From an uncultured SAR86 cluster bacterium (GTDB lineage Bacteria; Pseudomonadota; Gammaproteobacteria; Magnimaribacterales; D2472), in assembly GCA_902558095.1 (NCBI GenBank), contig CACECP010000001.1:90050-154049 (forward strand): 64,000 bases of DNA, read 5' to 3'. Shown piece by piece: positions 18,866-36,791 of the stretch; within the stretch, counting starts at the first letter, position 1, and each line of letters begins with the position of its first letter. The translations under genes and the position numbers were made by a program. Under the pieces are notes generated by a model that ran no database searches, was not told the DNA's origin, and saw nothing but the letters and a program-made list of their open reading frames with translations.

Positions 18866-20545
18866 TTAATAGCCTGATGCTTGGCCATCTTTTCGACTAT
18901 CTGATGCGCCTATATAGATATCATTTTTTATCATAATTGCCTGATATCCGCCAAAACCTCCTAAATCATATTGAAATTTATGACCAAATTTCTTTAGTTT
19001 TTCTACTTCTATTGAAGATATTCCTTTTTCAAGACTTAGGTATCCTCCATCAGTCATTATCTCACCTGTAGGTTGAGATGATCCAACGTGTCTAATTCTG
19101 GGTGCATCACCAGCTTCCTGTAAGTTCATTTCAAAATCAACTAAGTTCACAACTATCTGAACATGTCCTTGCGGCTGCATTGCTCCTCCCATTAAACCAA
19201 AACTTATAAAAGGCTTATCATCTTTTGTAATAAATGCAGGTATTATTGTATGAAATGGTCTTTTTCCACCAACTAAAGAGTTTTTATGATTTTTATCTAA
19301 ACTAAACATTTCACCTCTATCTTGAAGCATAAAACCAAGATTATTAGGTACCATGCCAGAGCCCATCCCTCTATAGTTACTTTGAATTAATGAAACCATA
19401 TTCCCAAATTTATCAGCAACTGTTAGGTAAATAGTGTCTCCGTCCTCTAAATTTCCTGCATTAAAACTGCTTGAAGAATTTTTGAGATCAATTAAATTTA
19501 ATCTATCCTTTGCATATTCCTTAGAAATTAATTTTGATACTGGAATATTTGAAAAGTTAGGATCAGCATAATACTTAGCCCTGTCTTCATATACTATTTT
19601 TTTAGTTTCTGTAAATAAATGAATATATTCTGCTGAACCAAAACCTAAGTTTTTAATGTCAAAGTTTTCTAAAATATTTAACATCTGAAGAGCCGCTATA
19701 CCCTGACCATTTGGAGGAAGTTCCCATACATCATAACCACGATAATTAGTTGAAACAGGATTAATCCACTCAGGCTTATACATTTTCAAATCCTCAAATG
19801 TTAAGTAACCTCCCTGCTGATTAATAAAATTTGAAATTTCTTTTGCTATATCTCCCTTATAAAAATCTTCACCATATGATTGTGCAATTTTTTTATATGT
19901 TTCTGCTAAAGATGGATTTTTAAATAAGTCTCCTTTTTTTGGGGTACTTCCGTTAGGCATCCATGTTTCTTTAAAATTTGGATAGTCTATAAAGTTAATT
20001 GAAGATAAATTTAAATAATATGCGACTACCTCAGATACAGGAAATCCGTTTTCAGCATAATTTATTGCATCATTAAAAAGAAATTTAAAATCTAGTAAAC
20101 CAAATTTTTTATGAAGTTCTGCCCAGCCACCAACAGCCCCTGGCACAGTTACTGGCAAGGGTCCATATGGGGGTATCTTATCTAAGCCCTTATTTTTAAT
20201 TTTATCTATACTTATGCTTTTAGGTGATGGACCTGAGGCATTAAGACCATATAATTTTGCATCATCTGCGCTCCACACAATTGCAAATAAATCACCTCCA
20301 ACACCACATCCAGTTGGCTCAACTAACCCAAGAACTGCATTTGCTGCAATAGCAGCATCTATAGCATTTCCACCATTTTGTAAGATTGATAATGCGGTTT
20401 GAGTGGCTAATGGATGACTTGTAGCTGCCATCCCATTTGTCGATAAAACCTCTGATCTGCTTGCGAATTCTAAACCTGTAATACGGTCATATGCATTAGA
20501 ATTAAATGCAATAAAAATTGTTATTAATATAATAGAATTTTTCAT
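18866..20545 (-). CDS. ggt: Gamma-glutamyltransferase
   Basis: Autoprocessing Thr context GDTIYLTVADKFGN and motif GLMGGAMQPQGH. Likely start is MKNSIILITIFIAFNSNA (20545), which gives a signal peptide. The track ORF extends to 20560. Confidence 0.9.
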   Translation of the reverse strand: MKNSIILITIFIAFNSNAYDRITGLEFASRSEVLSTNGMAATSHPLATQTALSILQNGGNAIDAAIAANAVLGLVEPTGCGVGGDLFAIVWSADDAKLYGLNASGPSPKSISIDKIKNKGLDKIPPYGPLPVTVPGAVGGWAELHKKFGLLDFKFLFNDAINYAENGFPVSEVVAYYLNLSSINFIDYPNFKETWMPNGSTPKKGDLFKNPSLAETYKKIAQSYGEDFYKGDIAKEISNFINQQGGYLTFEDLKMYKPEWINPVSTNYRGYDVWELPPNGQGIAALQMLNILENFDIKNLGFGSAEYIHLFTETKKIVYEDRAKYYADPNFSNIPVSKLISKEYAKDRLNLIDLKNSSSSFNAGNLEDGDTIYLTVADKFGNMVSLIQSNYRGMGSGMVPNNLGFMLQDRGEMFSLDKNHKNSLVGGKRPFHTIIPAFITKDDKPFISFGLMGGAMQPQGHVQIVVNLVDFEMNLQEAGDAPRIRHVGSSQPTGEIMTDGGYLSLEKGISSIEVEKLKKFGHKFQYDLGGFGGYQAIMIKNDIYIGASDSRKDGQASGY

Positions 20546-20552
20546 ATGTAAG

Positions 20553-21497
20553 TTAATCAATCACAACTAATGTTCCACCATTTTGTTCAGTTAACTCTCT
20601 CATTAGGGTGAGATATTTATCATTATCTTCTGGAGTTGCATAAGCCTGATTCGAACTTCTTGAAGTTAAGAAACCTAAAGCATTAATTCTTACGTATTTA
20701 GATCCATCACTTTTTGTATTTATTCTATTAATTTCAAGCAGTCTTTTATCGACATCTTTATTTTCATTGATATCATCACCAACTATAAAAATACCTACGT
20801 CATCAAATTTTTTTCCATAAAAATTTATAGATTTCTCAATAGCTGGAATTGGGTTACTTTGGGAAACGACATTTACTGTTCGTAATTTATTGACAGCGTC
20901 TATCCTATTAGCTTTGGTAGGTTTTACCCAATTACCTGCACCAATAATAGTTCTTCCAGTATCATTCATAACCATGAATCCCTCAAGGTTTGGAAATGTT
21001 GTAATAATAGTTTCAATTTCTTTAATAACACTTCGCCAAGGAGCTGCATAAAACATGCTTCCAGAATTATCTATAATAAAAATTAAATATCGACTATCTA
21101 TTCTAATTCCACTTGCTACTACTTGTTTTTCAGGTTGTTTTTGGTCTGCTTTTTTTACAATTATTTGACTTTGTTTTAGTTGAGATGTTTCTGTAAGACT
21201 TTCAGCTATATTTGTTCTTTCATTGAGGTTTTCTTTTACTTTGTCTAGTTCTTCTTGAATTGATATTAAGTTCTTCAACTTTGATGTAAGTTCATTATCG
21301 AACTCATTTAGTTCATTATTCTTCGTTACTATTTCTTCCTGTTTCGTTAGAAATAATTCAGCAGTATATTTATTTTCAATAATTTCTACTTCATTAAACT
21401 CACTTATCAATAAAATTAATACAAGCGCACCAAATCCACAAGCCATAATGTCTAAAAATGACATTGAGAAAACTTCAGTCGTTTTCTTTTCTTTCAT
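20553..21497 (-). CDS. g9: membrane protein with ExbD/TolR-like Asp TM helix + coiled coil + vWA-like domain (paralog of g8)
   Basis: N-terminal TM FSMSFLDIMACGFGALVLILLI, then a heptad-rich segment (about residues 45-115), then a vWA start LIFIIDNSGSM. I prefer ATG 21497, which forms an ATGA overlap with the g8 stop. The track ORF begins at a TTG (21506). Confidence 0.7.
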   Translation of the reverse strand: MKEKKTTEVFSMSFLDIMACGFGALVLILLISEFNEVEIIENKYTAELFLTKQEEIVTKNNELNEFDNELTSKLKNLISIQEELDKVKENLNERTNIAESLTETSQLKQSQIIVKKADQKQPEKQVVASGIRIDSRYLIFIIDNSGSMFYAAPWRSVIKEIETIITTFPNLEGFMVMNDTGRTIIGAGNWVKPTKANRIDAVNKLRTVNVVSQSNPIPAIEKSINFYGKKFDDVGIFIVGDDINENKDVDKRLLEINRINTKSDGSKYVRINALGFLTSRSSNQAYATPEDNDKYLTLMRELTEQNGGTLVVID

Positions 21498-22573
21498 GAT
21501 GGCCAATCCTTGCTTGAAGTTAAAAAGCAGCCACCAGTCTGTTTTGAAAATAAAGAATAAGTAAAGGTTGCTTTTGGATCACCTTTTAAAGGTAATAAAA
21601 TTAAATTTAGCTTTGCATTATATGTATTTCGGTCTGCATCATAAAAAATATCTTTATAAGTATCTTTAAAAGCACTAAAAAAATTTAATCTACACTCCAA
21701 ATCAATTAACTCTTCTTTAAGACATCCTTTAATTCTTCCATCTTTTAAACTTGGTGTTGATGATTTCGGTTTTATTGCCTGTGTTGGCAAACCATCGGTA
21801 ATTAAATAAATACTATCAGCATCTTTCCATTGTTCTAATTTTTTAAAAGCAAGCTGTAGATTGGTGCCGTGATCAGGCGCTTCTGTTAACAAATGAACTA
21901 AATGACCTTCAATTTCTATCTTGTTGCGTGAATCTATCCAGTCATTGGTATTTGGCTTTATTTTTAAGTCTTTATTGAAACTAGCTAATATAACTTCAGA
22001 ATCCTCAGGTAAATTATTTACCAACCATCTATAAATTTGTTTTGCTTTTTTCCATTTCTCAGTATTCTGTTTTATAAAATCTGTTTGAACGCTCAAACGA
22101 ATTATTTCAACTAGTTCTTTGTGAAGCATGCTTTCAGAAGAATCTATTAACAAAATAATTTTTTTTCCCTCGACGTTACACCCAGATATATATATTTTTT
22201 TAACAGGTTTATATTTTGTGGCAGCACTTTTCTTGAGTTGTTCCAGGACCGATGTTAGGTTTGTATTTTCATCAACTAAATTATCAATAACAGTATTTGT
22301 TATTTCTGTTTTTAATTTAGCTGAATTGATTTCTGAGCTTACGTTATCAATTGATTTTTGTACGTTAGATAATTCATTAGTTTTTGATTCTATTAAATCA
22401 TCAATGTTTTCAATTTGAGCTTCTAATGGAAGGATTTCATCTTTAAAGCTCTCGGTAAGAGGTGAATATGTAGCCTCTTTTACAAAGATAAACATTAAAG
22501 CTACCGCACCTAATCCACAAGCCATAATATCTATAAAAGATAATGAGAATGGATTTAGTTGTTTACGTTTCAA
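21494..22573 (-). CDS. g8: membrane protein with ExbD/TolR-like Asp TM helix + coiled coil + vWA domain (complete MIDAS)
   Basis: 359 aa with N-terminal TM FSLSFIDIMACGLGAVALMFIF and a heptad-rich linker. vWA motifs are ILLIDSSESM (DxSxS), GTNLQLAF (Thr) and IYLITDGLPT (Asp). TTG start lies 4 nt after the g7 stop, with no in-frame ATG before the TM helix. Confidence 0.75.
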   Translation of the reverse strand: MKRKQLNPFSLSFIDIMACGLGAVALMFIFVKEATYSPLTESFKDEILPLEAQIENIDDLIESKTNELSNVQKSIDNVSSEINSAKLKTEITNTVIDNLVDENTNLTSVLEQLKKSAATKYKPVKKIYISGCNVEGKKIILLIDSSESMLHKELVEIIRLSVQTDFIKQNTEKWKKAKQIYRWLVNNLPEDSEVILASFNKDLKIKPNTNDWIDSRNKIEIEGHLVHLLTEAPDHGTNLQLAFKKLEQWKDADSIYLITDGLPTQAIKPKSSTPSLKDGRIKGCLKEELIDLECRLNFFSAFKDTYKDIFYDADRNTYNAKLNLILLPLKGDPKATFTYSLFSKQTGGCFLTSSKDWPS

Positions 22574-22577
22574 GTAT

Positions 22578-23234
22578 TTATTTAGCTAAAAATCTTGCTC
22601 TTAGCATTACAATAAGGTTATCTTGTTTATACTCAATTCTTGTTATAAAAAACATCAACATAATGCTTAATAAAAGAGCTGTGAATGTTGAGTTAAAAGC
22701 AACACCAAGGCTTGTAGTCATACCTGTAATGTCACCGTCTATTGCTTCAGCAGCTTGAGACAACGCCTCTCCAATTCCTCTGACAGTACCTATAAATCCA
22801 ATTGATGGTATTGCCCAAGAAATATATTTGATAAATGAAAGGTCTAATTGAAATAAATCAAATTTATTTTCAATTAAAATAGAGTATATTTCTTTATTTG
22901 AAGTTTCACTGTCAATTTTTTCGCTTAGCTCTTCGAGCAATGGATCGTTATTATTTTCAAGCGATTTATAGTCATCTTGGAGTAAATAATAATTAAATGC
23001 TCCTATAATTAAGCTCCATAAAAATAATATTAAGCATATTTTTTGTTCGGGGTCTTTTAAAATAACTGAAAAGTGTCTTTCGGGAGAAATATTATTTGCC
23101 TGTGCTATTGCCATGAATTCAAATGCCATTGGATTTATAAGTGCAAGATAAAAAATATGTACAATTATTAGAGATAAAAAGAATGACAAAAAGATAAAGA
23201 TTGAATAATAAGATTTATTAAAATATTTTTTCAT
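22578..23234 (-). CDS. g7: divergent MotA/TolQ/ExbB-family proton channel
   Basis: 218 aa. The C-terminal half carries the family signature IPSIGFIGTVRGIGEAL ... GMTTSLGVAFNSTFTALLLSIMLMFF, directly comparable with ExbB at 1407..2006. Confidence 0.8.
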   Translation of the reverse strand: MKKYFNKSYYSIFIFLSFFLSLIIVHIFYLALINPMAFEFMAIAQANNISPERHFSVILKDPEQKICLILFLWSLIIGAFNYYLLQDDYKSLENNNDPLLEELSEKIDSETSNKEIYSILIENKFDLFQLDLSFIKYISWAIPSIGFIGTVRGIGEALSQAAEAIDGDITGMTTSLGVAFNSTFTALLLSIMLMFFITRIEYKQDNLIVMLRARFLAK

Positions 23235-23362
23235 TATATATCCTTGGGTAAATCAATTGAGTTGTTAATACTTAGTCTATTTTTTAAATTTAAATTATTT
23301 GATTGAGAATAAACAGTACCCGCAACAATAACTATAATAATTAAATATATTAAATACCGCAT
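23234..23362 (-). CDS. g6: unannotated 42-codon ORF, small hydrophobic/secreted peptide
   Basis: Manual translation: MRYLIYLIIIVIVAGTVYSQSNNLNLKNRLSINNSIDLPKDI. The ATG lies 2 nt after the g5 stop and the TAA overlaps the g7 ATG (TAATG). It exactly fills the only apparent gap in the operon. It is absent from the ORF track, in which no ORF is shorter than 61 aa. Confidence 0.55.
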   Translation of the reverse strand: MRYLIYLIIIVIVAGTVYSQSNNLNLKNRLSINNSIDLPKDI

Positions 23363-23364
23363 TT

Positions 23365-25257
23365 TTAGTAGATCCATCTTGCTATCCTAAATCCTATAAG
23401 TTCATTTTCTGCATTACCATATGTCCTATATGATAAACCAAGTTGAAGGGGTGTGGATGAATAATGATTAGATCCTTTTATTACGTGAGTAGTTCCAACT
23501 GTGGGGCCAATATAATCAGTAAAAATTTCAGATGGATCTATTATCTCAATTGAATAAAAGTCATTTACCCATTCTGATAAATTTCCAGTGATATCATTGA
23601 GACCATTTTGATTTGATCTAAATGATCCAACAGGTGATCTTTCTAAGTAACCATCATCATAATCAGGCACAAAATTGGCTAGAATCCCTTCTGTAGTTTG
23701 GTCTGCTATATTTCCAACTAATTTTCTAATTTGCCTATCTGATCCCCATGCATATATTAGCTCACCCTGTGTGGGGTTGTTGGATTTTGCAGCATACTCC
23801 CATTCTGCCTCTGTAGGTAATCTGTAACCATTAGATTTTGTATTGAAATATAATAACCTATCACCTTTGATAATATAAAATTGGTCCAGGCCTTCTTTAC
23901 GACTCAACCAATTGCAAAATTTTGCAGCATCAATCCAAGACACATTATTTACAGGAAGATTAGATGCACTTGTAGATTTTTTAAATTTTTTATATTGATT
24001 TTCAGTAATTAAATTTTTACTTATAAAAAAATGTTTTGTAATTTTTACCTTTTTTTGTAATTCATTAATATCTCTTCTTGACTCTCTTTTTGGAGAGCCC
24101 ATAGTAATTGATCCTGGATTCATAAGTATCAATTTTGAACCAATGGAATTAGTAGAATTATTCTTACTATCTATTAACGACGCTTGTTTATCTGTTAGTA
24201 AATTTTTATATATTTGAACTTTATCATTTAATGGTTCAAATGATTCTCTAATCGATCTATGGCCTAATGCCTCATAACTAATTTTATGTTTAATTTTTTG
24301 GATATCTTTTTTTAATGGTGTTGAGCCAATATACCTACCATTCAAAATCACCTTTGCAGGAACGTTACTGCTAAATTGAACTTCTGCCATATCTTTTTCA
24401 AGAGTTGTGCTTATCGTTTTTGTTTGATTATTAGGACTTATCAATTTATCACGATATCCATATTTCTTTATTTTGATTGTTCCTTTTTTAATATTAGGAA
24501 ATTTTATTGGGGTTATGCCAATATACTCATCATCTAAGAATACTGATGCACTTGGTGGATTTGATGATAGAGAAATTAAATTTTCATCTTCGTCAAGCAA
24601 ATAATTGATTTCAGATTTGTTGTTATCATTAACAAAATACTTAACTTTTTTTTCTTTATACCCGGCTTTTTTTAGAATTATTTCATTATTAGATCTATCT
24701 AAATTTATTGTCAATGGCGTTACGCCAAGCTCAGTATTATTTAAAAAAACTTTAGCATTATTTGGATTTGAAGATATTTGTAACGATTTATCAATTTTTT
24801 TAAGAATTACCGGAATCAATAATTCATCTGTGTATTTCTCTATTTCAAAATTTGATTTATAGGTTAAATGATTATTTGATGTTATTTCGTATGAATGAGC
24901 ACCCTTTTTTAACTTGATATTATCTAATGAATTAAGAACTTTATTGTTAAGAATAAATTTATCATAAGTATCGTTGATTTTAAAAACCACATTTATAGGT
25001 TTCTCAATAAGAATAATTTCTTTATCAGAGTCACGATGGTTGAATTCAATAGTTTTTGATTCATAGCCATATGCTTCCACATTTAGTTTAAATTTTCGAA
25101 AAAAAGAATATACAGTATCATTTATAATAATAGAATTTGGTGAACTAACCTTAAGCTCAGGATATTCTTCTTTATAGTTTATATTTGATGATTTTAAAAG
25201 AAAAAGTGGAATTGCTATTAGCAATGTCACTATAACAATAATTGTTTTTTTGTTCAT
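23365..25257 (-). CDS. g5: membrane-anchored PEGA-repeat protein with C-terminal FGE/SUMF1-like domain
   Basis: 630 aa with N-terminal TM IIVIVTLLIAIPLFLL. There are at least three PEGA units (ISSNPNNAKVFLNNTELGVTPLTINL; LSSNPPSASVFLDDEYIGITPIKF; FSSNVPAKVILNGRYIGSTPLKK). FGE-sulfatase motifs are NNVSWIDAAKFCNWLS, GYRLPTEAEWEYAAK and GFRIAR. Confidence 0.8.
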   Translation of the reverse strand: MNKKTIIVIVTLLIAIPLFLLKSSNINYKEEYPELKVSSPNSIIINDTVYSFFRKFKLNVEAYGYESKTIEFNHRDSDKEIILIEKPINVVFKINDTYDKFILNNKVLNSLDNIKLKKGAHSYEITSNNHLTYKSNFEIEKYTDELLIPVILKKIDKSLQISSNPNNAKVFLNNTELGVTPLTINLDRSNNEIILKKAGYKEKKVKYFVNDNNKSEINYLLDEDENLISLSSNPPSASVFLDDEYIGITPIKFPNIKKGTIKIKKYGYRDKLISPNNQTKTISTTLEKDMAEVQFSSNVPAKVILNGRYIGSTPLKKDIQKIKHKISYEALGHRSIRESFEPLNDKVQIYKNLLTDKQASLIDSKNNSTNSIGSKLILMNPGSITMGSPKRESRRDINELQKKVKITKHFFISKNLITENQYKKFKKSTSASNLPVNNVSWIDAAKFCNWLSRKEGLDQFYIIKGDRLLYFNTKSNGYRLPTEAEWEYAAKSNNPTQGELIYAWGSDRQIRKLVGNIADQTTEGILANFVPDYDDGYLERSPVGSFRSNQNGLNDITGNLSEWVNDFYSIEIIDPSEIFTDYIGPTVGTTHVIKGSNHYSSTPLQLGLSYRTYGNAENELIGFRIARWIY

Positions 25258-27116
25258 GCAACACAGAATCCAGCTGGAACAACCACAACATGATTTATTT
25301 TTCCAACTTGAGGCTGACCATTAATTTTAGGCACTTTAAATTTTGATTTCTTTAATGCTTTTTCAATTATTACTATCACGGCTCTATCATCAGATTTAAG
25401 ATTTTTTGATAGAGTCATTTCCTGATGTACTCTTATTGATGTAACTCTTGATGCTACTACTTTACCAGCTTTATCTACATTTAAAGTAAATGTTAGACGA
25501 AGTGGACTATTTCTGGTTGTTTTTGTACATACAATATTTTTTGAAAAAGATGAGCTTATAATTTTTGCATTTTTAATAAATTTTTCATCTAAAATGTTTT
25601 GTGCAGAATTGGTATTTTGTTGATTGTTGAATATGTTTTCTTCTTGTTCTTCTACGTTTGATAAATCGACATCATCTTTTGTAATATTTCCTGTTTCATA
25701 TATGGAACACTTGTTTGTACATATTGCCGTAATAGATAAAAACTCTTTACCAGGCTCTAAATTAATTTCTTTTCGAGTTGATTGCATACCTCTCTTTTTT
25801 GCTACTAAAACATATTTTCCTGGATAGAGTTTTATATTTTCTTCAGAAAAAGGTTCGTAGTTTCTTGTCTTTTGTATATCTACATAAGTTTCATCATTAG
25901 ATATAAGATTTAAAACTACCATCTCACCATATTTTTTAAATGTCTCGTTCGCTTGCAATATTAGATTAATTAATTTTTTTTCATCTTTGAGAATAAGATT
26001 ATTAGCAACTCCTATAACTCTCTCAAAATTATTTCTTATATTTGGTGAACTTAATCTATCGACATTTCTTAAATATTTATTTAAATCGTCATAAGTTTGT
26101 TTTATAGATGAGGTTCTATTAAATTTTCTAACTAAATCTGAATTTGTTGGGTCAAGTTTTAAGGCTTTGTTATATGCATCTAAGGCTGATTCCCAATTTT
26201 CAGCAGCATAGCTTCTGTCACCAGAATTTGTGAATAGAGTTATATCATAATTTTTCTTTTTAATATCAATTTCTCTTTTGAGTATTGGTAACTCTGAATT
26301 ATTAGGAAGAATCGATTTAGCGTCATTATATAAAGATAGGGATTTAGAAAAATCATTAGAATTTAGAGCGCTATATGCTTTTTTTAAGTTCTGATCAAAA
26401 TAATAAACTTTAGATTCATTTATAATTTTTACTTTAATTTGTTTTGCGTCAGCTCTTTCTGGATCTATTTGAATGGCCTCATCAATGGTTTGAATTGCTA
26501 GACTGTATTTTTTAGAGGAAGAATAGTCTTCTGCCGATGATATTAAATCGGTGACTATATAGTAGTTATCAATACGTTTGTTTATGTTAATTAACTTTTT
26601 GTTTGCTGGGTCAATAGACAATCCTTCTTCAACAAGCGTTTTAGCTTCGTCAAGTTTAACTAAGTCAAAAGCTAATTGTGATCTATCAATAATTTCTAAA
26701 ACTTTTAATCTATTTCTATCATTAAAGCTAATTATTAATTCAGAGGCCTCTTTATATGAATCTCTAGATTTAAAGTAAAATTCATCAAAATAAAATTTAT
26801 CACCATCTTTTTTAAGTGACTCAACCTCACTTAAAATACTTTTAGCTTCAGCCATTTCAACATTTTTGAATGATTCATATAGAGGATCTAATTTTTTTAG
26901 TTCAACTAAAGCTTCATTTCTTTCTTTACAAAGAGGTGAATTAGCCCAAACACCTGTGCAATCAAGGGATGTATTTGGGTCTACAGTAAGAATGTTTTCG
27001 TTAGAATTGGTAATAGGCTCCTCATTGCTACAACTATATAGCAATGAGAAGACAATAATACTTGTTAAACTTTTATAAAATCTCAAATTCATTGGTTTGA
27101 CTAGACTCTGATTCAT
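25254..27116 (-). CDS. g4: TPR-repeat lipoprotein with PEGA-like segment and TonB-C-like C-terminus
   Basis: 620 aa with lipobox IIVFSLLYSC (alternative start 27092, MNLRFYK...). Several TPR-like units are present (e.g. NWESALDAYNKALKLDPTNSDL). The C-terminus LRLTFTLNVDKAGKVVASRV...ALKKSKFKVPKINGQP resembles the TonB C-terminal fold pattern, which is tentative. Confidence 0.6.
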   Translation of the reverse strand: MNQSLVKPMNLRFYKSLTSIIVFSLLYSCSNEEPITNSNENILTVDPNTSLDCTGVWANSPLCKERNEALVELKKLDPLYESFKNVEMAEAKSILSEVESLKKDGDKFYFDEFYFKSRDSYKEASELIISFNDRNRLKVLEIIDRSQLAFDLVKLDEAKTLVEEGLSIDPANKKLININKRIDNYYIVTDLISSAEDYSSSKKYSLAIQTIDEAIQIDPERADAKQIKVKIINESKVYYFDQNLKKAYSALNSNDFSKSLSLYNDAKSILPNNSELPILKREIDIKKKNYDITLFTNSGDRSYAAENWESALDAYNKALKLDPTNSDLVRKFNRTSSIKQTYDDLNKYLRNVDRLSSPNIRNNFERVIGVANNLILKDEKKLINLILQANETFKKYGEMVVLNLISNDETYVDIQKTRNYEPFSEENIKLYPGKYVLVAKKRGMQSTRKEINLEPGKEFLSITAICTNKCSIYETGNITKDDVDLSNVEEQEENIFNNQQNTNSAQNILDEKFIKNAKIISSSFSKNIVCTKTTRNSPLRLTFTLNVDKAGKVVASRVTSIRVHQEMTLSKNLKSDDRAVIVIIEKALKKSKFKVPKINGQPQVGKINHVVVVPAGFCVA

Positions 27117-28257
27117 ATATATCTATGAGTATAGTTTGCCATTGATCAAATTGATTTTGAATATTACCCTCAAGTTTAACTTGAAGATCTTCCATTTCAA
27201 CAACCTTAGGAGCAATTTCTCCATCAAATGACTTTGAAACCTCATTTATTGTTGATTCATGGACTTTAGCTTCTCTAGCATCACCTACAGCAGATGCTAT
27301 CAAACCTGCACCAAGAAGTGCTGCAGTTGAAGCTCCTGCACTATAGTCATAATTGTCACTACTAGAAGATGATGATGCAGCTGCTGCAACAATAAGAGCA
27401 CCAAGAATTGCTTTTCCAGCAGCAGCTCTTTGCGCTTCTCTCTTTTGTTTTGAAGCTGTTAATGCTGCCTCTTGCCAAATCTTATAACTCTCATCCATTG
27501 TGTCTGTGAATGAAATATAATGTTTTTGCATTTCATTTTTAAATTGGGCATCTTTTAATTGAACATTTTGTGCCCTAATAAACATAGGGTCATTCATAGC
27601 AGGAACAAATCCCAATGAATATCTTCCATTTTCAACATCTAAGGACTCATCAAACTCCATCTCGTTGAGTTTTTGTGCAAATCTTAAATCTGTAACTAAT
27701 TCAATCTGTTCAAGGTCTCTTTTTTTAAGCTCTTTTATTATATCGCCAGCAATAGATCTATAGACGACATCAAATGGATCTTTACCTTTATTTCTTATAT
27801 TTTGATAGAAGTATTCGCTTGTTCTATGTTTATAAAGTTTGTTTTTTATTATCGGTTTGCCTGTCGAATCTTTTGCATTTATTAAAAGATGAACATCCTC
27901 TCCGTTGGATTCTTGAATAGTTCCTTCAATCACAATGTCTGTTAAGAATTCGGCATTGGTTGTTACTGCAACATTTGCAAAAGCATTGGTTTCGTTAAGC
28001 GATCTCATCATTTTTACTGCAAACCTTCTAGCTTCTGCTCTTCTTAACTCAGGCCATAAGCCATTTTCACGATCGACCTCATCACTTCCTGATAGGCCTG
28101 GATCAAGCTCTACTATATTAATATCTAATTTAGTTGACATTGTTGAAGCGTCTAATTCAAGCTCTTCATATGTCATAGAATTAGTTATAGGCGCTGTAGT
28201 TTCGCAGCTAATTAATATAAAAGTTAGAGCGAATAAAGTTGTAATATTTTTTAACAT
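27073..28257 (-). CDS. g3: hypothetical lipoprotein
   Basis: 394 aa with signal and lipobox LFALTFILISC. It has an internal Ala/Ser/Gly-rich hydrophobic stretch (AILGALIVAAAASSSSSS...AALLGAGLIASAVG). No recognisable domain. Confidence 0.6.
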   Translation of the reverse strand: MLKNITTLFALTFILISCETTAPITNSMTYEELELDASTMSTKLDINIVELDPGLSGSDEVDRENGLWPELRRAEARRFAVKMMRSLNETNAFANVAVTTNAEFLTDIVIEGTIQESNGEDVHLLINAKDSTGKPIIKNKLYKHRTSEYFYQNIRNKGKDPFDVVYRSIAGDIIKELKKRDLEQIELVTDLRFAQKLNEMEFDESLDVENGRYSLGFVPAMNDPMFIRAQNVQLKDAQFKNEMQKHYISFTDTMDESYKIWQEAALTASKQKREAQRAAAGKAILGALIVAAAASSSSSSDNYDYSAGASTAALLGAGLIASAVGDAREAKVHESTINEVSKSFDGEIAPKVVEMEDLQVKLEGNIQNQFDQWQTILIDIYESESSQTNEFEIL

Positions 28258-28940
28258 TTTAAATTCTCCGGTTTAAGGTTGTTATAGATAGCATATTTTC
28301 TAATAAGCTCGTTTTTTAAAATTGGGTCATTCTCTTTAGCAATGCTTTCTTTAAGCTGCGCAGAAACTTGATTGTTATCCTTTATATTTGCTATACATGC
28401 CGGTACAGCTCCATTGTCAGCCATGTTTGAGTTTGTAGAGTTATTTACATTACCTGAATTTGTATTGGCTAAATTTGTATTGGCTGAATTCATATTGCCA
28501 GAATTTAAATTACCTGAATTTTGATTTCCTAAATTTTGATTTCCTGAATTTTGATTTCCTGAATTTTGACTTCCTGAATTTATATTATTTGCAACATTAT
28601 TATTACTTCCATTATTTAATTTTGGGGTTCCAAGAGTTTTTGATGGAGTGCTTACTTTTGTTTTTTGAACATCTGATCCAGAAATAGATCCACCAGAATT
28701 AGTTTGAGCTACATTGAGATCAGCTGTTTGTGCTAGCTGTGATATACATTCTTGGTTTGCTTGTGCTAAAAGTTTTTTAAAATATAAATCTTTAGCTTTA
28801 ACAATTTCTTCATTCGTCATATTAACTTCATCTATTTCAAGTTTAATCTCTTCATCACATGTTATTTGTATAACTTCTTGAGAATTAACTGAAAAAGGAA
28901 TAATTAAAAAAACAAAAAGTAAAAGTTTAATCATCGTCAT
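28251..28940 (-). CDS. g2: secreted low-complexity protein with N/S/G pentapeptide repeats
   Basis: 229 aa with signal peptide MIKLLLFVFLIIPFSVNS. Its core is SGNQNSGNQNSGNQNLGNQNSGNLNSGNMNSANTNLANTNSGN. Confidence 0.6.
   Translation of the reverse strand: MTMIKLLLFVFLIIPFSVNSQEVIQITCDEEIKLEIDEVNMTNEEIVKAKDLYFKKLLAQANQECISQLAQTADLNVAQTNSGGSISGSDVQKTKVSTPSKTLGTPKLNNGSNNNVANNINSGSQNSGNQNSGNQNLGNQNSGNLNSGNMNSANTNLANTNSGNVNNSTNSNMADNGAVPACIANIKDNNQVSAQLKESIAKENDPILKNELIRKYAIYNNLKPENLKC
28450..28584 (-). repeat. About 9 tandem 15-bp units (pentapeptide-coding microsatellite-like array) inside g2
   Basis: Plus-strand units include ttacctgaatttgta, ttggctaaatttgta, ttggctgaattcata, ttgccagaatttaaa, ttacctgaattttga, tttcctaaattttga, tttcctgaattttga (x2) and cttcctgaatttata. 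Confidence 0.85.
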
Positions 28941-29688
28941 TTTTAATAGCGGGCGGTATTCTTCTTAAATTAATTTCCACCTTAAATATCATTAAATAAA
29001 GAACAGCTGCAGCATACAAAGCAAGTCCATATAGAACATATTGCAAATTTGCATATCCTCTGGCGTTTTTAAAGGCAGATTCACTAATATTGGATTGAAT
29101 ATTATCTTGTCTTGCGGATATATTGTCCTGAAAATCATCAATGTACATTTCTAGAGCATCTCCAACTAAATCAAGTCTGTCATCAAAATTTCCAACCCTT
29201 TTAAAATCATTTATATTTTTAATATCATCAAAAAAATCTATTAATCCAGAAACTAAATCATCGTAATCGTCTCCCATATAACTGTAATTACTTTTAAAGA
29301 ATGCTTCTAAAGTTCTTGGTGTTATATTTTGATATAACCTATTAAGGTTTGCTTGTGAATCATCAAATTGTTTTGATATAGCAGTTCTTAAGTCTACAAA
29401 CCTTTTGTCTACTGGATTTTGATTATTTGATGGCGTCGCTGATCGAAGATTTTGAGGTGCTTTGAATTGTGTTACTGGAGCTTTAGGCTTAGGAAATAGT
29501 TTTGATTTAAAGCTTTCATCATATGTGATACTTGGCAGTCTTCCTTTAGATGTACTAGGTGAATCCCCTATTAAGGTCAAACTATATATAAGTGCGATTA
29601 AAGCACCAATCAGTGCTAAAGAACCTATCGCTATCAAAAAATATCTTGAAATAATAATTAATAGATTTTCAATCTTTTCTATCCACAT
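28927..29688 (-). CDS. g1: hypothetical membrane protein (N- and C-terminal TM helices)
   Basis: 253 aa. TM1 is YFLIAIGSLALIGALIALIYSLTLI and the C-terminal TM is LQYVLYGLALYAAAVLYLMIF. The central region is acidic (DDYDDLVSGLIDFFDD). It is the first gene of the operon. Confidence 0.55.
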   Translation of the reverse strand: MWIEKIENLLIIISRYFLIAIGSLALIGALIALIYSLTLIGDSPSTSKGRLPSITYDESFKSKLFPKPKAPVTQFKAPQNLRSATPSNNQNPVDKRFVDLRTAISKQFDDSQANLNRLYQNITPRTLEAFFKSNYSYMGDDYDDLVSGLIDFFDDIKNINDFKRVGNFDDRLDLVGDALEMYIDDFQDNISARQDNIQSNISESAFKNARGYANLQYVLYGLALYAAAVLYLMIFKVEINLRRIPPAIKNDDD

Positions 29689-30552: not shown

Positions 30553-32508
30553 TTAATATTTTAAATTATTTTTTAAATCATCTAAATATGGTTCATAGTT
30601 TTTCCAGTAATCCATTCCACTTGTATATATAGGTTGACGAACTTGCTCAGCACTTGGTGTTTTTACAGATCTTTTAGATTTATAGAATTCAAGACATTCT
30701 TTTTCAAAAGGAATTTCACAATATTCTAAGATATCTCTAACCGAATCCTCAAAGTTATTTACAACATCTTCGTAGTTAATTGAGAGTATTTGATTTGGTA
30801 AAACTTTATTCCAGTGATTCATTAACTCTACATAATTATTATAGTATCCAGCTAAATCTTTTAAGTCGTATGTAAATTCTTGTCCCTCAGCAAAAAGCTG
30901 TTTGAAACATGAAAAACAAGCAGACATTGATGATCTTCTAATATCAATTATTTTTGCATTAGGTAGAATAAGTTTTATTAAACCGATGTGTCTGAAGTTA
31001 TTCGGCATTTTGTCTATAAAATAAGGTTTATCTGATCTAAAGACCTCACTATCCTTTATATATTTATCTCCTATTAATTTTAATTGAGGCGAAGATAAGC
31101 TTAATAATATATCTGGGTATCTTGATTTTTTATCTTGTGACTTTCTTTCGTTTAATCTTAATGCAGTCGAAATAATGTTTGGTAGTTCATGGGTAGGTTC
31201 AACTAGTGAATGAGAAGATAGAATTTGTTCAATGAGGGTTGATCCAACACGAGGCAAGCCTAAAATAAATATAGGAGCCTTTGATTCACTACCCCATTTA
31301 GACTTCATTTCAAATAAATCGTCAGTACATACATCTATCTGGTTTGTACATTCTTTTTCAAAATCATTGACGTTAAATAAAGCTTTGCTTTTTTTAATTA
31401 AATTTCCTTCCTTGTAATGATTAAATGATTTTTCATACTCATTAAGGTCTTCATATGCTTTTCCTAGAGCAAAGTGCATGAAAGTTTTTTCATCTACTGA
31501 AACATATGGATCATTAACCATTTTGTCTATAGAGATCACCTCAGATTCAGAAAAAGTGTATGTTTTAAGATTGGCCAAACTCCAATATGAATCGCCAAAG
31601 TATTTATCAGTTTTATAAGCCGTTTGATAACAGTTAATTGATTTATCTATTTCACCTGAAGTTTTATAAAGGTGTCCCATAGATAACATCACATCCGTAT
31701 TTTTGGGTTCTAGTTTTAAAATATCATTGTAAATATCTATTGCTTCTTGGTATCTATCTGTTCTAAATAAGGCTGTTGATAATAGCTTCATTGCATTTAT
31801 ATTTTTTTTATCTTCATTATAAAAATCTTGAGCATGTTTTAATGCTTCGCCATACTTTTGTCTTTTAGTAAGTATGTTTATATAGTCATATTTAATTTTT
31901 GCATTTTCTGGATCAAATAAAAGCGCGCTTTCCAAAAGAAACTCTGCATCTTCATATATATTCAAATCTCTTCCGATATTAGCAAGCAATCTCATTGCTT
32001 CAATGTCATGAGGGTGATCTCTTAAATATTCTCTACAAATCCTATCTGCTCTTGATAGTTTTCCTTCATGTGTAAAACTAATTACTGTTTTTAATTCAGG
32101 TGGCAAGTCTTTTAGATATATTACATTTTGTTCTACAAATTTTATTAATTCTTCATTTTTGGTTTCTAATGCAAGTATGCCCAACCATGATGATTGAAGT
32201 GATGGATTATGTCTAACAGCTCTCAAGTATGCTTTAAGAGCTTTATTTTTGTTTTTAAGTAAAATATTTGTGTGTCCTATTTCTTGATAGGCTCTTCCAT
32301 AATTTGGATCAACTTGAATCAATTTATCTAAATTAATTAAAGCCTTTTTAGGTTCATTAAGGTATCTATAGCATACTGATGTTAAATAATAAAAATCTTT
32401 TTCTATTAATTGTTTAGAATTTTTTTTACATAAAGATAGCGCGTTTTTAAAATCTTTATTCTTAATAGAATTTTCAATAACTTTTTTAATTTCAGTTCTT
32501 TCGTTCAT
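30553..32508 (-). CDS. TPR-repeat sulfotransferase (copy 1)
   Basis: 651 aa with no signal peptide. The N-terminal half is TPR units. The C-terminal half has PAPS-binding-like motifs ILGLPRVGSTLIEQILSSHS (5'-PSB) and IIDIRRSSMSACFSCFKQ (3'-PB). Paralog of 38662..40254. Confidence 0.8.
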   Translation of the reverse strand: MNERTEIKKVIENSIKNKDFKNALSLCKKNSKQLIEKDFYYLTSVCYRYLNEPKKALINLDKLIQVDPNYGRAYQEIGHTNILLKNKNKALKAYLRAVRHNPSLQSSWLGILALETKNEELIKFVEQNVIYLKDLPPELKTVISFTHEGKLSRADRICREYLRDHPHDIEAMRLLANIGRDLNIYEDAEFLLESALLFDPENAKIKYDYINILTKRQKYGEALKHAQDFYNEDKKNINAMKLLSTALFRTDRYQEAIDIYNDILKLEPKNTDVMLSMGHLYKTSGEIDKSINCYQTAYKTDKYFGDSYWSLANLKTYTFSESEVISIDKMVNDPYVSVDEKTFMHFALGKAYEDLNEYEKSFNHYKEGNLIKKSKALFNVNDFEKECTNQIDVCTDDLFEMKSKWGSESKAPIFILGLPRVGSTLIEQILSSHSLVEPTHELPNIISTALRLNERKSQDKKSRYPDILLSLSSPQLKLIGDKYIKDSEVFRSDKPYFIDKMPNNFRHIGLIKLILPNAKIIDIRRSSMSACFSCFKQLFAEGQEFTYDLKDLAGYYNNYVELMNHWNKVLPNQILSINYEDVVNNFEDSVRDILEYCEIPFEKECLEFYKSKRSVKTPSAEQVRQPIYTSGMDYWKNYEPYLDDLKNNLKY

Positions 32509-32579: not shown

Positions 32580-35009
32580 TTAGAATTTATAAGATATTCT
32601 TACACCAATATTTCTAGGTCTATTAGTTGTAATTCTAGGAATATCATCCTGATCGTTATAATAGAAGTTTGCTCTTTCATCAGTAATATTTCTGATAAAG
32701 AACTCAACATCAGTTCCATTAATGCTTACGCCATATGCAGCATCCCATATTGTGTATGATGGTTGCTCTAAGCGTTTAGCTGCTTCAAGTGAGCTATAAG
32801 CTTTATCAGAACTCTTCACAGCAATTTGTGTATAAGCAGGATTACCACCTAGTTCTGAGTCAACCTTAACTCTAATGTTGTACTGAAGTTTTGGTGATAA
32901 TGGCATAGAACTTCCAACATTTGAAATTTGGATAATTCTAGACTTATCAGCAGTAACTTCTGTGTCATTATAAGAAACAGCACTAGCAACAGTTACATTG
33001 TCACTTGGATACCAAAGAATATCAGCTTCCATACCTTTAATCTCGGCATCAGCTGCATTTTCTATGAATGTTAATAATCCAACATTAACTGGATCAAACT
33101 GTGATACTTGAACATCTGTCCAATCCACCATGTAATATGATGCATTAAGTCTTAATGTTCCATCTAGCATTACAGTTTTAACACCTACCTCAGTATTGGT
33201 AGTATCATCAGTTCCGTATGTAATTAACACATTAGGTAAAGCTGAATTCCTTGATGCAAGACCTCCACCTCTATTAAATCCACCAGGTCTGTAACCTTCT
33301 GATCTTGTGAAATACCACATTGTGTCATCATCAACTGTATATTTAGCTGAAAGTTTTGTAATAGTATCATTCATGTTTAATGGTTCAGCACTATGATCAC
33401 CAGACACGTCGTAGTCTCTACCATTTGAAACATTTGAACCTCTATAACCAAACTTTGATTGACCTGTATAGTCAACATCTAAATCATACTTTCTAGCACC
33501 AACAATAAGATCTAACTTATCGCTAACTGGGAAAGTCACTTCAGCAAAGTATGCTGTTTGCTCTTCAGTTCTCTTAAGATCATTAAAGAATCTACAAGCT
33601 GGTCTTCTAACTCTACCTTCTCTTGACCATGCTCCAGGTAATGGATTATTAACCTGGTAAGCAGCCCATGTTCCAGCAGATGCAAACGGATGATCAGTAC
33701 CTAAGTAACAGTAATCATTTTCTGTTTCTAAAATACTTTCATCAATGAATACACCAGCAGTATATGAGAAAGGTAAGTCACTTTCTTCATTGCTTGATAC
33801 TCTAAATTCATGAGTTGTTCTTTGATTATCATCTAATAACTCTACAGATACTGTAGCAGGTCCGCATAAGTTATAAGCTGTATAGTTACAAACATAATAA
33901 GGCAACCATGCACCAACATTTGCATAACCACTATAGTCAACTTGTTGTTCAGATTCTCTCTCTAGATATGCTCCAGTATATAAAGCATCTAGCTTACCCA
34001 TTCTTCCTTCTAATGTAAGTGATGTTTGAGTAAATGAATCATCTAGTGTATCTGGTACAAATCTACTTACGTTAAGATCACCTTTTTCTGGATCGTAGTC
34101 AAAAACACCATCAGCACTAATATCTTGGCTCATGTGTGTGATTAACATTTCCCAATCTTCACCAATTGAAGATGCAGATGAAAGTCTAAAACCTTCATAT
34201 GTAGCATCATTAAAATTATCTTCAACTAAAGTTGAGTTAGTTTCAGTAACAAAAGTAGCCGCACCAGCTGCAGGGAAACTTCCTCTACCAGCACCTGACC
34301 ATGTTCCTGGAACGTTATCTATATAACCACCTTGTTGTGATTTATAGAAAACACCTCTTATAGACCAAACATCATTAATTAGGGGTACGTTTAAAAATGC
34401 GTCATATGAATAACTAGGATCACCATGTGCAGTTGCATAGTGAGACATATTAAATCCACCTTCTCTTTCATTATATTTTGGTTTATTAGTAATCATCCGA
34501 ACAGTACCAGCTTGAGAGCTAGCGCCATACAATGTTCCTTGTGGTCCAGGCAATACTTCAATTCTCTCCATATCAGCAACATACACATCTAAATTCCTTC
34601 CAGGAACTTGAAGTGGCTGTTCATCTAAGTAAAGCGCTACGTTTGGAGTAGATCCTTGAGCAGCAGAAAGGAAGACGTTTACCGGATCAACTGCCATACC
34701 TCTAATATAGATAGTTGATTGACCAGGCCCTCTACCACCTGATGAAACATTAGGTAAGAATTGAACGTACTCATCAAAGTTTGATACATTCATTTCTTTT
34801 AATGTTTCTTCTGTCAAAGCTGTTACTGTTACAGCAACCTTAGAAGCACTTTCATCCTTCTTTGTTGCAGAAACAACAACTTCTTCAATTTGTCTTTCTT
34901 GTGATTCAGCAGTTTGAGGAACTATTGCAGCAACAGTACCTAAAACACCCAAAGAAAGCTTATTTTTTATTTTATTTAATTGTTCTTTTGTATTAATAAA
35001 ATTAAACAT
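32580..35009 (-). CDS. TonB-dependent receptor (TBDR-1)
   Basis: The plug region has EEVVVSATKK and LPGPQGTLYGASSQAGTVRMI. A long beta-barrel ends in NIGVRISYKF. I prefer ATG 35009 (MFNFINTK...), which is preceded by GAGGA. The track ORF starts at 35021. Confidence 0.9.
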   Translation of the reverse strand: MFNFINTKEQLNKIKNKLSLGVLGTVAAIVPQTAESQERQIEEVVVSATKKDESASKVAVTVTALTEETLKEMNVSNFDEYVQFLPNVSSGGRGPGQSTIYIRGMAVDPVNVFLSAAQGSTPNVALYLDEQPLQVPGRNLDVYVADMERIEVLPGPQGTLYGASSQAGTVRMITNKPKYNEREGGFNMSHYATAHGDPSYSYDAFLNVPLINDVWSIRGVFYKSQQGGYIDNVPGTWSGAGRGSFPAAGAATFVTETNSTLVEDNFNDATYEGFRLSSASSIGEDWEMLITHMSQDISADGVFDYDPEKGDLNVSRFVPDTLDDSFTQTSLTLEGRMGKLDALYTGAYLERESEQQVDYSGYANVGAWLPYYVCNYTAYNLCGPATVSVELLDDNQRTTHEFRVSSNEESDLPFSYTAGVFIDESILETENDYCYLGTDHPFASAGTWAAYQVNNPLPGAWSREGRVRRPACRFFNDLKRTEEQTAYFAEVTFPVSDKLDLIVGARKYDLDVDYTGQSKFGYRGSNVSNGRDYDVSGDHSAEPLNMNDTITKLSAKYTVDDDTMWYFTRSEGYRPGGFNRGGGLASRNSALPNVLITYGTDDTTNTEVGVKTVMLDGTLRLNASYYMVDWTDVQVSQFDPVNVGLLTFIENAADAEIKGMEADILWYPSDNVTVASAVSYNDTEVTADKSRIIQISNVGSSMPLSPKLQYNIRVKVDSELGGNPAYTQIAVKSSDKAYSSLEAAKRLEQPSYTIWDAAYGVSINGTDVEFFIRNITDERANFYYNDQDDIPRITTNRPRNIGVRISYKF

Positions 35010-35050
35010 ATGAATCCTCATAGTTAGTTAATATAAATTGCAAAATAAAC

Positions 35051-35261: not shown

Positions 35262-36791
35262 ATGAATAATATAAGCAAGTCAAGATTTATTACTTCAGTT
35301 ATTTTAATTGTTGGAATTGCTGTATTGACTGCTTTTATTTCAATAAATACTGCTTACACATTAGATAATGGAGCTCAATCAAATCTTATAAATGATTTAT
35401 TTGCAGAAATGCAAACTTTTCTATCAAAATACCTTGGGTGGATGATAATCATACTTGCAAACGGTTTTTTAGTATTTTCTATATTCTTAATTTTTACAAA
35501 ATATAAAAATATCAAATTAGGTGGCCCTTCTGCAATACCAAAATATTCATACACAAATTGGATTGCTATGCTCTTTAGTGCAGGCCTTGGTATAGGATTA
35601 CTTTTTTATGGTGTTGCAGAACCTATAATGCATTTATCGTCTTATCCTGGAATGGTTGATGGAGATATTTCTTATAACGCAGGTAAGGCTATTGGATTGG
35701 CTAATCTTCACTGGGGTCTTCATGGATGGGCAATATATTCAGCTCTTGGCTTATGTTTTGCCTTTGCAACATATAACAAAAATCTTCCTTTCAGAGTGAG
35801 TTCGCTGCTAGGATCAAAAGTAGCAAACAACAAACCACTTGCTGTAACAATAGATATCATTGCAATTGTTACAACCGTGTTTGGAGTTACTACATCACTT
35901 GGCCTTGGGACTGAGCAAATTAGCGCTGGGTTAAGTCATATATTCTCAATTAAAGAAACATTTTCTAACAAAATGCTAATTATCTTAGTGATTACGTTAA
36001 TCGGCCTTCTTAGTGTTTCGTTAGGCCTTGATTCAGGTATAAAAAAACTTTCACAAATAAATATGGTTTTGGCAATAGTACTACTTGCATTCGTATTTTT
36101 ATTCGGACCAACAGTTTTTATTGTAAATGCTCTAATTCAAAATTTTGGTGCATATGTCAATACATTAATTGAGTCAGCTACTTGGACAGAAGTTTATGAT
36201 TCATCATCGTGGCAAAATGGTTGGACCTTGTTCTATTACTCATGGTGGTTTGCATGGGCTCCTTTTGTATCTCTTTTTATCGCAAGAATCTCTTATGGAA
36301 GATCAATTAAAGAATTTGTAATTGGAGTTTTGTTTGTTCCTTCACTCATTGTATTTCTTTGGATGGGTATCTTTGGAAATGCCGCAATTCACCAAGTAAT
36401 TAATGAAACAAGTCAACTTGGACAAGTGGTGAACACTAACTTTGACGTTGCTTTATTTTCTTTATTTGAGATTTATCCAGTTACAAAGTTTATTTCAATA
36501 GTTTCTCTAATTTTAATTGTTACTTTCTTTGTAACCTCATCTGATTCAGGAGCATTAGTTGCTTCAATGCTTTCATCAAAAAAACAAACAAGTATAAATG
36601 ATGATTCACCGATAATTTCAAGAGCAACATGGGCAATTTTGTTAGGATTGTTGGCTGGAGTCTTATTATTTGCTGGCGGTCTTAAAGCTTTGCAAACATC
36701 AGTAGTTATAACAGGAGTTCCTTTTGCAATTATTGTTGTCTTTGCTTGTAGAAAATTCTATAAATCTTTGGAAAAAGAGCTAAATAAATAA
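35262..36791 (+). CDS. BCCT-family transporter (betaine/carnitine/choline type)
   Basis: 509 aa with 12 TM. BCCT signature [33 protein letters not shown]. Confidence 0.9.
   Translation: [509 protein letters not shown]

Follow-up and report, generated by a model that had tools for sequence, protein, structure and literature searches.

The stretch of DNA analysed here (hereafter the window) spans 64,000 nucleotides of contig CACECP010000001.1 from an uncultured bacterium of the SAR86 cluster. On its minus strand, to which all coordinates of the cluster refer, lies a closely packed run of genes, g2-g3-g4-g5-g6-g7-g8-g9, whose starts and stops overlap or abut, with overlaps of 4-44 nt. This work is centred on g5 (23365..25257), whose ATG start overlaps the stop codon of g4 (ATGA), and whose product of 630 residues combines a transmembrane anchor, a PEGA-type stalk and a head with the fold of formylglycine-generating enzymes (FGE) from which the catalytic cysteines are missing. 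It is followed by a gene for a small secreted protein (g6) and by three genes (g7, g8 and g9) that resemble those of a proton-driven motor. A scan found no minus-strand terminator inside the cluster, including the interval from g5 to g7, and the promoter and terminator sites that it returned are no more frequent than expected by chance.

Architecture and topology of g5

The g5 protein starts with a transmembrane helix (residues 3-22, 25192..25251), with Lys3 and Lys4 on the cytoplasmic side, continues with a stalk predicted to be periplasmic (residues 24-352, 24202..25188), and ends with a head in the FGE-sulfatase, C-type-lectin-like fold (residues 375-627, 23377..24135), recognised by both Pfam (PF03781) and Foldseek. 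The AlphaFold2 model, for which an alignment of 64 sequences served as input, has a mean predicted local distance difference test score (pLDDT) of 86.5. In it the helix covers residues 3-22, about five beta-sandwich modules follow one another in tandem over 24-351, and a short linker helix leads to the FGE fold at 375-628. Three PEGA repeats are called by Pfam in the stalk (E 1.4e-23), which is the number given in the initial annotation of this DNA; the model contains two PEGA-like modules beyond these, and the earlier figure thus holds for the profile matches and falls short of the modelled total.

Every g5 orthologue has one N-terminal transmembrane segment preceded by a segment rich in Arg and Lys, and therefore an N-in topology is predicted, with the bulk of the protein in the periplasm. 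By these topology signals g5 is shown to be held in, or routed through, the inner membrane via one N-terminal helix. Both the single transmembrane segment and the periplasmic location supposed at the outset are supported in silico; a cytoplasmic location receives no support. The periplasmic part that follows the helix is of roughly constant length, about 600-650 residues in the orthologues checked, whereas the cytoplasmic N-terminal extension varies from 3 to about 200 residues. The head is the best conserved part of g5, with 38% identity to distant orthologues as against 15-22% for the stalk. The genome locus closest to the window is 80% identical, with about 30% G+C. A Foldseek search against viral structures returned generic beta-repeat tail proteins only.

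The FGE-like head of g5

The PF03781 profile matches residues 375-627 over its positions 4-255 of 255 (E 2.8e-34), that is at full length, and the FGE-family motifs quoted in the initial annotation are all present: NNVSWIDAAKFCNWLS at residues 437-452, GYRLPTEAEWEYAAK at 477-491, HVIKGSNHYSSTPLQLGLSYR at 591-611 and GFRIAR at 622-627. The catalytic columns were located by comparing a profile of 24 divergent orthologues with human FGE (1y1e) and its mutants C336S (2aft) and C341S (2afy). In this alignment Cys336 of human FGE stands opposite Ser600 and Cys341 opposite Pro603 (codons of Ser600 to Pro603, 23449..23460), and none of 43 g5 orthologues has a cysteine at either column, in agreement with the missing cysteine pair reported at first. 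The sole cysteine of g5 is Cys448, in the structural CNWLS helix, and this is also the only cysteine column of the domain among the 43 orthologues. Trp299 of FGE corresponds to Ser561, a serine in the g5 family, and an insert of ~45 residues (...APWWLPVKGANWRHPEGP...), which in human FGE separates the N-terminal strand region from the CNW helix, is absent from the family profile. The residues Asn516, Asp535, Asp555 and Glu562 are invariant or nearly so in the family; they align with Asn259, Asp273, Asn293 and Glu300 of human FGE, which we take to form its two Ca2+ sites. Their near-invariance indicates that the fold is intact. Because Ser600 and Pro603 replace the catalytic cysteines and the FGE insert is missing, the g5 head cannot make formylglycine by the known mechanism. 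On the basis of these alignments g5 is not an FGE, both catalytic cysteines and the FGE-specific insert being missing throughout the orthologous family.

The missing cysteines are by themselves an ordinary feature of g5, this state being common in the PF03781 family. The relatives of the head found in the PDB by sequence and fold include many that are Cys-less, namely PorK, PvdO, TvpA, CarF, CalU17 and ToxD. When the g5 model was compared with known structures using Foldseek, TvpA was the top match (E 8e-14, with a template-modelling score relative to the target, TM-target, of 0.67), PvdO reached 0.70 and human FGE 0.68, and CarF fell in the same range of 0.67-0.70. The non-catalytic binders TvpA and PvdO thus match the g5 structure as well as true FGEs do. 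The database names carried by the family, 'formylglycine-generating enzyme required for sulfatase activity' (JGI) and 'SUMF1/EgtB/PvdO family nonheme iron enzyme' (NCBI), are misleading.

Assignment to a known enzyme or related family was rejected in each case. The NCBIfam models for EgtB, SenA, OvoA, PvdO, GldK and GldJ give g5 scores of 27-92 bits, against cutoffs of 350-500. For a sulfoxide synthase of the EgtB, OvoA or SenA type, no DinB match was found by Pfam, the N-terminus is occupied by a transmembrane helix and PEGA repeats, and the scores are 34.6 bits against 360 (TIGR03440) and 40.5 against 420 (SenA); for PvdO, the score is 51.6 bits against a cutoff of 500 (NF051459) and pyoverdine genes were not found in the cluster. 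No open reading frame (ORF) with the sulfatase motif (C/S)-x-P-x-R is present in the 64-kb window, and none of the window ORFs scanned has a Pfam match to Sulfatase, EgtB or EgtD. A true FGE, EgtB or PvdO enzyme was accordingly discarded, since the catalytic residues or domains are missing, the model scores lie far under the cutoffs and a partner gene for sulfatase or ergothioneine chemistry was not found in the window; the initial view of a head without an intact FGE catalytic centre is upheld. The match to TvpA also brought up the idea of a protein diversified by a diversity-generating retroelement (DGR), which was rejected, as there is no template repeat at the 3' end of g5, no reverse transcriptase nearby, and the C-terminus is stable. 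A comparison of 52 near-identical environmental variants shows almost no change in the C-terminal 90 residues and none in residues 541-600.

The motor genes g7, g8 and g9

The g7 gene (22578..23234) encodes a protein of 218 residues similar to the proton-channel subunits TolQ, ExbB and MotA (Pfam PF01618, 46.5 bits). The products of g8 (21494..22573) and g9 (20553..21506) are paralogues, as they are in every locus; each is composed of an ExbD-like transmembrane helix with an Asp residue, a predicted helical segment of about 90-100 residues, probably a coiled coil, and a vWA domain (Pfam VWA_2 in g8, vWA-like in g9, whose orthologue in locus L002 matches Pfam VWA). The metal-ion-dependent adhesion site (MIDAS) residues D-x-S-x-S ... 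D are intact in these domains, reading D-S-S-E-S ... D in g8 and D-N-S-G-S in g9. The N-terminal helix follows an invariant pattern, F-[SN]-L-[SA]-F-[IL]-D-[IV]-[MI]-x-C-G-[FL]-G-A, and in an alignment with E. coli ExbD its Asp falls opposite Asp25. The invariant residues of the g8 alignment are F13, D15, C19, G22, A23, D144, S146, S148 and D260. Pfam and NCBIfam detected no ExbD, TolR or MotB homologue among the cluster products, and no OmpA-like, TolR-like or other recognisable peptidoglycan-binding domain was found in g8 or g9.

The Asp helix is encoded by a 59-nt direct repeat, 81% identical, located at the 5' ends of g9 (21412-21470) and g8 (22491-22549). This likeness at the nucleotide level is unusually high for two proteins that are only about 21% identical overall, and it may result from strong constraint or from gene conversion.

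A motor of this kind was recently described (PMC12204202, Mol Biol Evol 2025, section 8, Fig. 4c-d), in which a tolQ-like gene of proteobacterial hosts is accompanied by a heterologous pair of membrane-tethered vWA proteins, with no tolR, exbD or motB gene. The 'transpore helix' of the vWA pair bears the conserved Asp of ExbD, TolR and MotB and is predicted to lie inside the pentamer; AlphaFold 3 models led the authors to propose a 5:2 assembly with the Asp pair within the Thr ring of the pentamer. The function of the system was given as unknown, the vWA proteins being assigned force transduction (PMC12204202). The genes g7-g9 share the proteobacterial host, the tolQ-like gene, the vWA pair with its Asp helix and the lack of tolR, exbD and motB, and as far as sequence can tell they belong to this class of TolQ-like/Asp-helix-vWA motors, the match being to the published description rather than to its Idiomarina seed sequence. 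PEGA, FGE/SUMF1/formylglycine, lectin and GldK are nowhere named in the main text of PMC12204202 or in those of its supplements that were accessible, and full-text literature on PEGA combined with FGE-sulfatase or MotA/vWA yielded nothing relevant. An anti-phage defence system of the Zorya type was discarded, PADLOC giving only a marginal signal (ZorA, E 0.0018) on the MotA-like core and coiled-coil noise.

Conservation of the cluster

Synteny was analysed by BLASTP and hidden Markov model (HMM) comparison in 45 genome loci that carry a stalk-plus-FGE orthologue, 23-34% identical to g5; the sequence collections contain at least 2,900 relatives of g5. The gene order g2-g3-g4-g5-g7-g8-g9 and the strand are kept in about 40 of these 45 loci; both vWA genes are found in 40/45, and all five of g3, g4, g7, g8 and g9 in 34/45. 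Several of the incomplete loci are at contig ends, and five are from the most divergent clade. These loci come from Gamma- and Alphaproteobacteria, from Ca. Sulfomarinibacter (Acidobacteriota) and from a Cryomorphaceae metagenome-assembled genome (Bacteroidota), and the isolates that carry the cluster include Glaciecola sp. SC05 and Microbulbifer variabilis, in which it lies at 753-775 kb of CP092418.1.

The linkage was also followed in the reverse direction, in metagenome loci seeded on the vWA N-terminal motif, wherever the sequence ahead of the tolQ-like gene extended over 2.3 kb or more. A PEGA-FGE gene is located upstream of the tolQ-like gene in all 42 of these 42 loci, whereas none of 10 control loci with an FGE domain but no PEGA stalk has tolQ-like or vWA genes. 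The tie between g5 and the g7-g9 unit, at first only suspected, is thus well established by gene order and strand, by the reverse test and by the control. That g5 is a mere neighbour, functionally unrelated to g7-g9, had in its favour only the 130-nt spacing between g5 and g7, which proved to hold g6; two-way synteny across phyla, together with the overlapping starts and stops, effectively refutes it.

The small secreted protein g6

The spacer of 130 nt between g5 and g7 is filled by g6 (23234..23362), an unannotated ORF of 42 codons (MRYLIYLIIIVIVAGTVYSQSNNLNLKNRLSINNSIDLPKDI*) whose stop codon overlaps the ATG of g7. Its product has an N-terminus resembling a signal peptide, a variable acidic linker and, at the extreme C-terminus, the motif Phi-P-x-D-I ([F/L/Y]-P-x-D-I-stop). 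A small ORF of this type occurs in all 91 of the 91 loci that have a tolQ-like gene and upstream DNA, with the strict motif in 83 and the variants FPTNI, FPTNL or FPISI in 8. Over 72 distinct tails the Pro, Asp and Ile residues are 100% conserved, and the extended consensus is [EK]-I-S-x-D-x-x-V-x-F-P-V-D-I. Only 93 of the 49,818 stop-terminated ORFs in all loci end in the motif, and 85 of these 93 are at the g6 position. An A-x-A site is frequent in the orthologues, and cleavage there would leave a mature peptide of 17-80 residues. No relevant literature on the FPVDI motif was found.

A free C-terminal acidic tail is the type of ligand bound by vWA MIDAS sites and by the 'carboxylate clamps' of tetratricopeptide repeat (TPR) proteins, and the FGE fold is natively peptide-binding; for these reasons g8/g9, the TPR protein g4 and g5 are candidate receptors of the g6 tail.

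Other genes of the cluster and its surroundings

Upstream of g5, g4 (25254..27116) encodes a TPR protein of 620 residues, of which residues about 40-470 are conserved. Its orthologues are bitopic inner-membrane TPR proteins; the SAR86 protein has a weakly hydrophobic N-terminus with a lipobox-like LLYSC site. The C-terminal ~150 residues (25254-25700, minus strand) form an extension specific to SAR86 that appears TonB_C-like by eye and has no detectable family; a TonB_C domain at this place was rejected, as neither Pfam nor pairwise alignment to the L002 protein that combines TPR and TonB_C detected one. In other lineages a separate TPR+TonB_C protein is encoded upstream of the cluster (for example at L002 4833-6164), and such proteins are found in 15 related loci.

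The g3 product (27073..28257) is a predicted lipoprotein of 394 residues (LISC lipobox) whose family lacks any Pfam domain and is annotated only as 'hypothetical'. Its model (pLDDT 79, predicted template-modelling score 0.80) contains an alpha/beta domain, a long helix, a Gly/Ala/Ser-rich segment and a C-terminal alpha/beta unit; the fold weakly resembles the TolB N-domain, PelC and LptE (best E 3.7e-3), which may serve as a lead only. The g2 gene (28251..28940) encodes a secreted, low-complexity protein of 229 residues and is directly upstream of g3 in about 29 genome loci. Within it a 15-nt unit is repeated in tandem some 9 times or more (28428-28607, minus strand), encoding (N-S-G-N-Q/L)n; the repeat looks lineage-specific. 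Further upstream, g1 (28927..29688) encodes a membrane protein of 253 residues, accessory and found in 8 loci only.

Many loci outside SAR86 have an extra gene of ~440 codons, with no Pfam domain in its product, between the tolQ-like gene and the first vWA gene (L002 13040-14380; L056 13179-14483, from Microbulbifer variabilis). Many also have, downstream of the second vWA gene, two small lipoproteins and an M48 (BepA-like) peptidase. The SAR86 cluster has none of these extra genes, the one of ~440 codons included. Since other lineages carry further genes, the SAR86 version of the cluster appears to be the minimal one.

In the window itself, a gamma-glutamyltranspeptidase gene (18866-20560, minus strand) has a start that overlaps the stop of g9 by 8 nt, as if co-transcribed; a gene of this kind was found at that position neither in the other SAR86 locus, L001, nor in any other lineage. 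Two TPR + sulfotransferase (Sulfotransfer_3) proteins, which are sulfotransferases and not sulfatases, are encoded at 30553-32508 and 38662-40254 (both minus strand), with a TonB-dependent receptor (32580-35021) and a BCCT transporter (35262-36791) between them; conservation of the Sulfotransfer_3 genes with the cluster is limited to SAR86. An ORF of 565 codons at 42680-44377 (plus strand) has no Pfam match at E <= 1e-5.

Discussion

The TolQ-like/vWA motor, recognised in 2025, is now placed in an eight-gene system with constant partners, namely g5, a TPR protein, a lipoprotein and g6. The motor class of g7-g9 was already published; the obligate set of eight genes, the partner with an FGE fold and the Phi-P-x-D-I peptide appear to be new. 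SAR86 is an abundant ocean clade that is generally regarded as genome-streamlined, and retention of the system even in this clade suggests a housekeeping role in the envelope. Cultured hosts (Microbulbifer, Glaciecola) make knock-outs feasible.

On balance we favour g5 as a non-enzymatic structural or binding subunit, with a docking function, of a conserved envelope machine driven by the proton-motive force, and this reading seems to us somewhat more probable than its rivals taken together. We infer that the head acts by binding rather than by some unknown chemistry. In this proposal g7, g8 and g9 would form a 5:2 motor in the manner put forward by PMC12204202. An extended g5 stalk of five beta-sandwiches, each of ~65 residues, would measure about 15-20 nm and the g8/g9 coiled coils about 12-15 nm, and the FGE head and the vWA heads would reach about the same level, close to the cell wall and the outer membrane. 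Since the periplasmic length is roughly constant and the head is far better conserved than the stalk, the stalk could be a spacer that fixes the docking head at a set height. The FGE head would then serve as a hub where at least one of the vWA MIDAS faces, g3/g4 and the g6 tail docks, and would couple the movement of the motor to the outer layers of the envelope, much as the Cys-less FGE folds of PorK and GldK do for PorLM and GldLM. More tentatively, and with the odds somewhat against it, the whole of g2-g9 could encode a machine not described before, widespread in marine and sediment Proteobacteria, which spans the envelope and is driven by protons, with g5 on its fixed-length PEGA stalk as a PorK-like mechanical hub and the g6 tail latching onto the head, a vWA MIDAS or the TPR protein.

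Several observations weigh against the docking proposal. The lengths of the stalk and of the coiled coils are estimates from typical domain sizes. The invariant residues of the g5 family are generic fold motifs only and pick out no specific binding surface. When the variable positions of the g6 tail were compared with the columns of g3, g4, g5, g7, g8 and g9, perfectly partitioning columns were few in g7-g9 and zero in g5; this co-variation screen does not discriminate between partners, because the L-type tail is clade-structured. In five loci (L021, L025, L039, L043 and L045) the interval of ~2 kb that should hold the tolQ-like gene gave no HMM match to one. These loci make up the most divergent g5 clade (about 23% identity, with long cytoplasmic N-terminal extensions) and keep both vWA genes, and their channel may be very divergent or replaced. 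With respect to the model hub, PorK is an outer-membrane lipoprotein whereas g5 has an inner-membrane helix and no lipobox, and the structural likeness of g5 to PorK by Foldseek is weak (template-modelling score of about 0.30).

A different arrangement, which we regard as rather unlikely, would make g5 a force transducer similar to TonB or TolA: its transmembrane helix would dock outside the TolQ-like pentamer and its FGE head would grip a target in the outer membrane or the cell wall. At the same low level of credence, the turning pentamer would pull that target while the g8/g9 dimer is held by its vWA heads, g5 being the moving output arm. Such a role is consistent with the three-part plan that g5 shares with TonB and TolA and with the lack of a recognisable peptidoglycan-binding domain in g8 and g9, and the TPR+TonB_C proteins of the 15 related loci hint at a Ton-like logic. 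However, the transmembrane helices of 45 g5 orthologues share no conserved polar residue, whereas SHLS/His is cited for the docking of TolA and TonB (PMC12204202), and the model of that paper gives force transduction to the vWA proteins; in addition, Pfam found no TonB_C domain in g5.

That g5 is instead an anchor or sensor of glycan or peptidoglycan, which would fix the stator or gate the motor according to the state of the envelope and thus be its input end, is in our view quite unlikely. In that case the PEGA modules, the lectin-like head or both would bind the cell wall or a polysaccharide of the periplasm or envelope. The FGE fold is C-type-lectin-like, and the residues aligned to the presumed Ca2+ ligands of FGE are kept. 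The g8 and g9 proteins have no OmpA-like or TolR-like peptidoglycan domain, and the C-terminal domains of MotB and TolR fill the stator-fixing role elsewhere. PEGA domains are moreover regarded as peptidoglycan-associating (PMC7159879). The stalk is nevertheless the least conserved part of g5, and its 15-22% identity is a better fit to a spacer than to a specific binder of the cell wall.

Still more improbable is that the FGE-like domain catalyses a reaction other than that of FGE, for instance as a PvdO-like oxidoreductase or another metal-dependent enzyme, on a periplasmic substrate that could be the g6 tail. Among the matches of g5, the Cys-less proteins PvdO, CalU17 and ToxD are tied to biosynthetic chemistry, a dedicated peptide is encoded directly downstream, and its Pro-containing tail loosely recalls the (C/S)-x-P-x-R substrate of FGE; the NCBI name 'nonheme iron enzyme' on some family members is a generic label. 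On the other side, no family-specific invariant polar cluster is seen beyond the generic fold motifs, no DinB or iron domain is present, the PvdO, EgtB, SenA and OvoA models score 27-52 bits against cutoffs of 360-500, and the position two before the Pro of g6 varies (S, D, P, G or A).

Comparison with known systems

Returning to g5 as a docking subunit, the system can be set beside several others. To the motor described in PMC12204202 our analysis adds g5 as an obligate PEGA-FGE partner, along with g2, g3 (the lipoprotein), g4 (the TPR protein) and g6 (the Phi-P-x-D-I peptide). TonB and TolA resemble g5 in their N-terminal transmembrane helix, a spacer that crosses the periplasm, a globular C-terminal domain and the linkage to a channel of the TolQ/ExbB type; in contrast, g5 has no TonB_C or TolA_C domain, and its spacer is made of beta-sandwich repeats whereas those of TonB and TolA are Pro-rich or helical. 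FGE itself (SUMF1) has the same fold but differs in the cysteine pair, in Trp299 and in the insert of ~45 residues.

In published work Cys-less domains of this fold are viewed as non-catalytic, and FGS domains have been described as binding effectors in vWA-MoxR conflict systems (PMC7159879). Like the g5 head, TvpA and these FGS domains are Cys-less, and the FGS domains of conflict systems are also associated with vWA proteins. Unlike in the vWA-MoxR systems, no MoxR ATPase or STAND NTPase accompanies g5, and the vWA proteins are here motor subunits.

The closest functional parallel is with PorK, GldK and GldJ, in which a 'repurposed FGE fold' without catalytic cysteines serves as a docking hub (PMC12421860) or a track, mechanically coupled to a proton-driven 5:2 motor with a dimeric subunit that spans the periplasm (PMC12421860, PMC12635249). 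These proteins and g5 have in common the FGE-like fold, the loss of both catalytic cysteines and a gene located beside those of a proton-driven motor, which for g7-g9 would likewise be of the 5:2 type, and GldK is the best partial match of g5 in NCBIfam (TIGR03525, confined to the C-terminal half, with 92 bits against a cutoff of 350). They differ in that g5 has a PEGA stalk and is without the insertion domains by which PorK binds PorN, in that its neighbours are TolQ-like and vWA proteins, matches to GldL, GldM and GldN not being found in the cluster by Pfam or NCBIfam, and in that its hosts are mainly Proteobacteria whereas those of PorK, GldK and GldJ are Bacteroidota. By this analogy g5 would at most act like PorK, while standing outside the PorK family. 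It would represent a second, independent instance, after PorK/GldK, in which a catalytically dead FGE fold is tied to a 5:2 motor. Should g5 indeed be the PorK-like hub of a g2-g9 machine, two systems without relation to each other would each have taken up an FGE-fold hub for a 5:2 motor on their own. Judged by sequence and fold comparison, g5 is outside the FGE, EgtB, PvdO, PorK/GldK, DGR-target and TonB families, and is placed within the class of non-catalytic FGE-fold modules.

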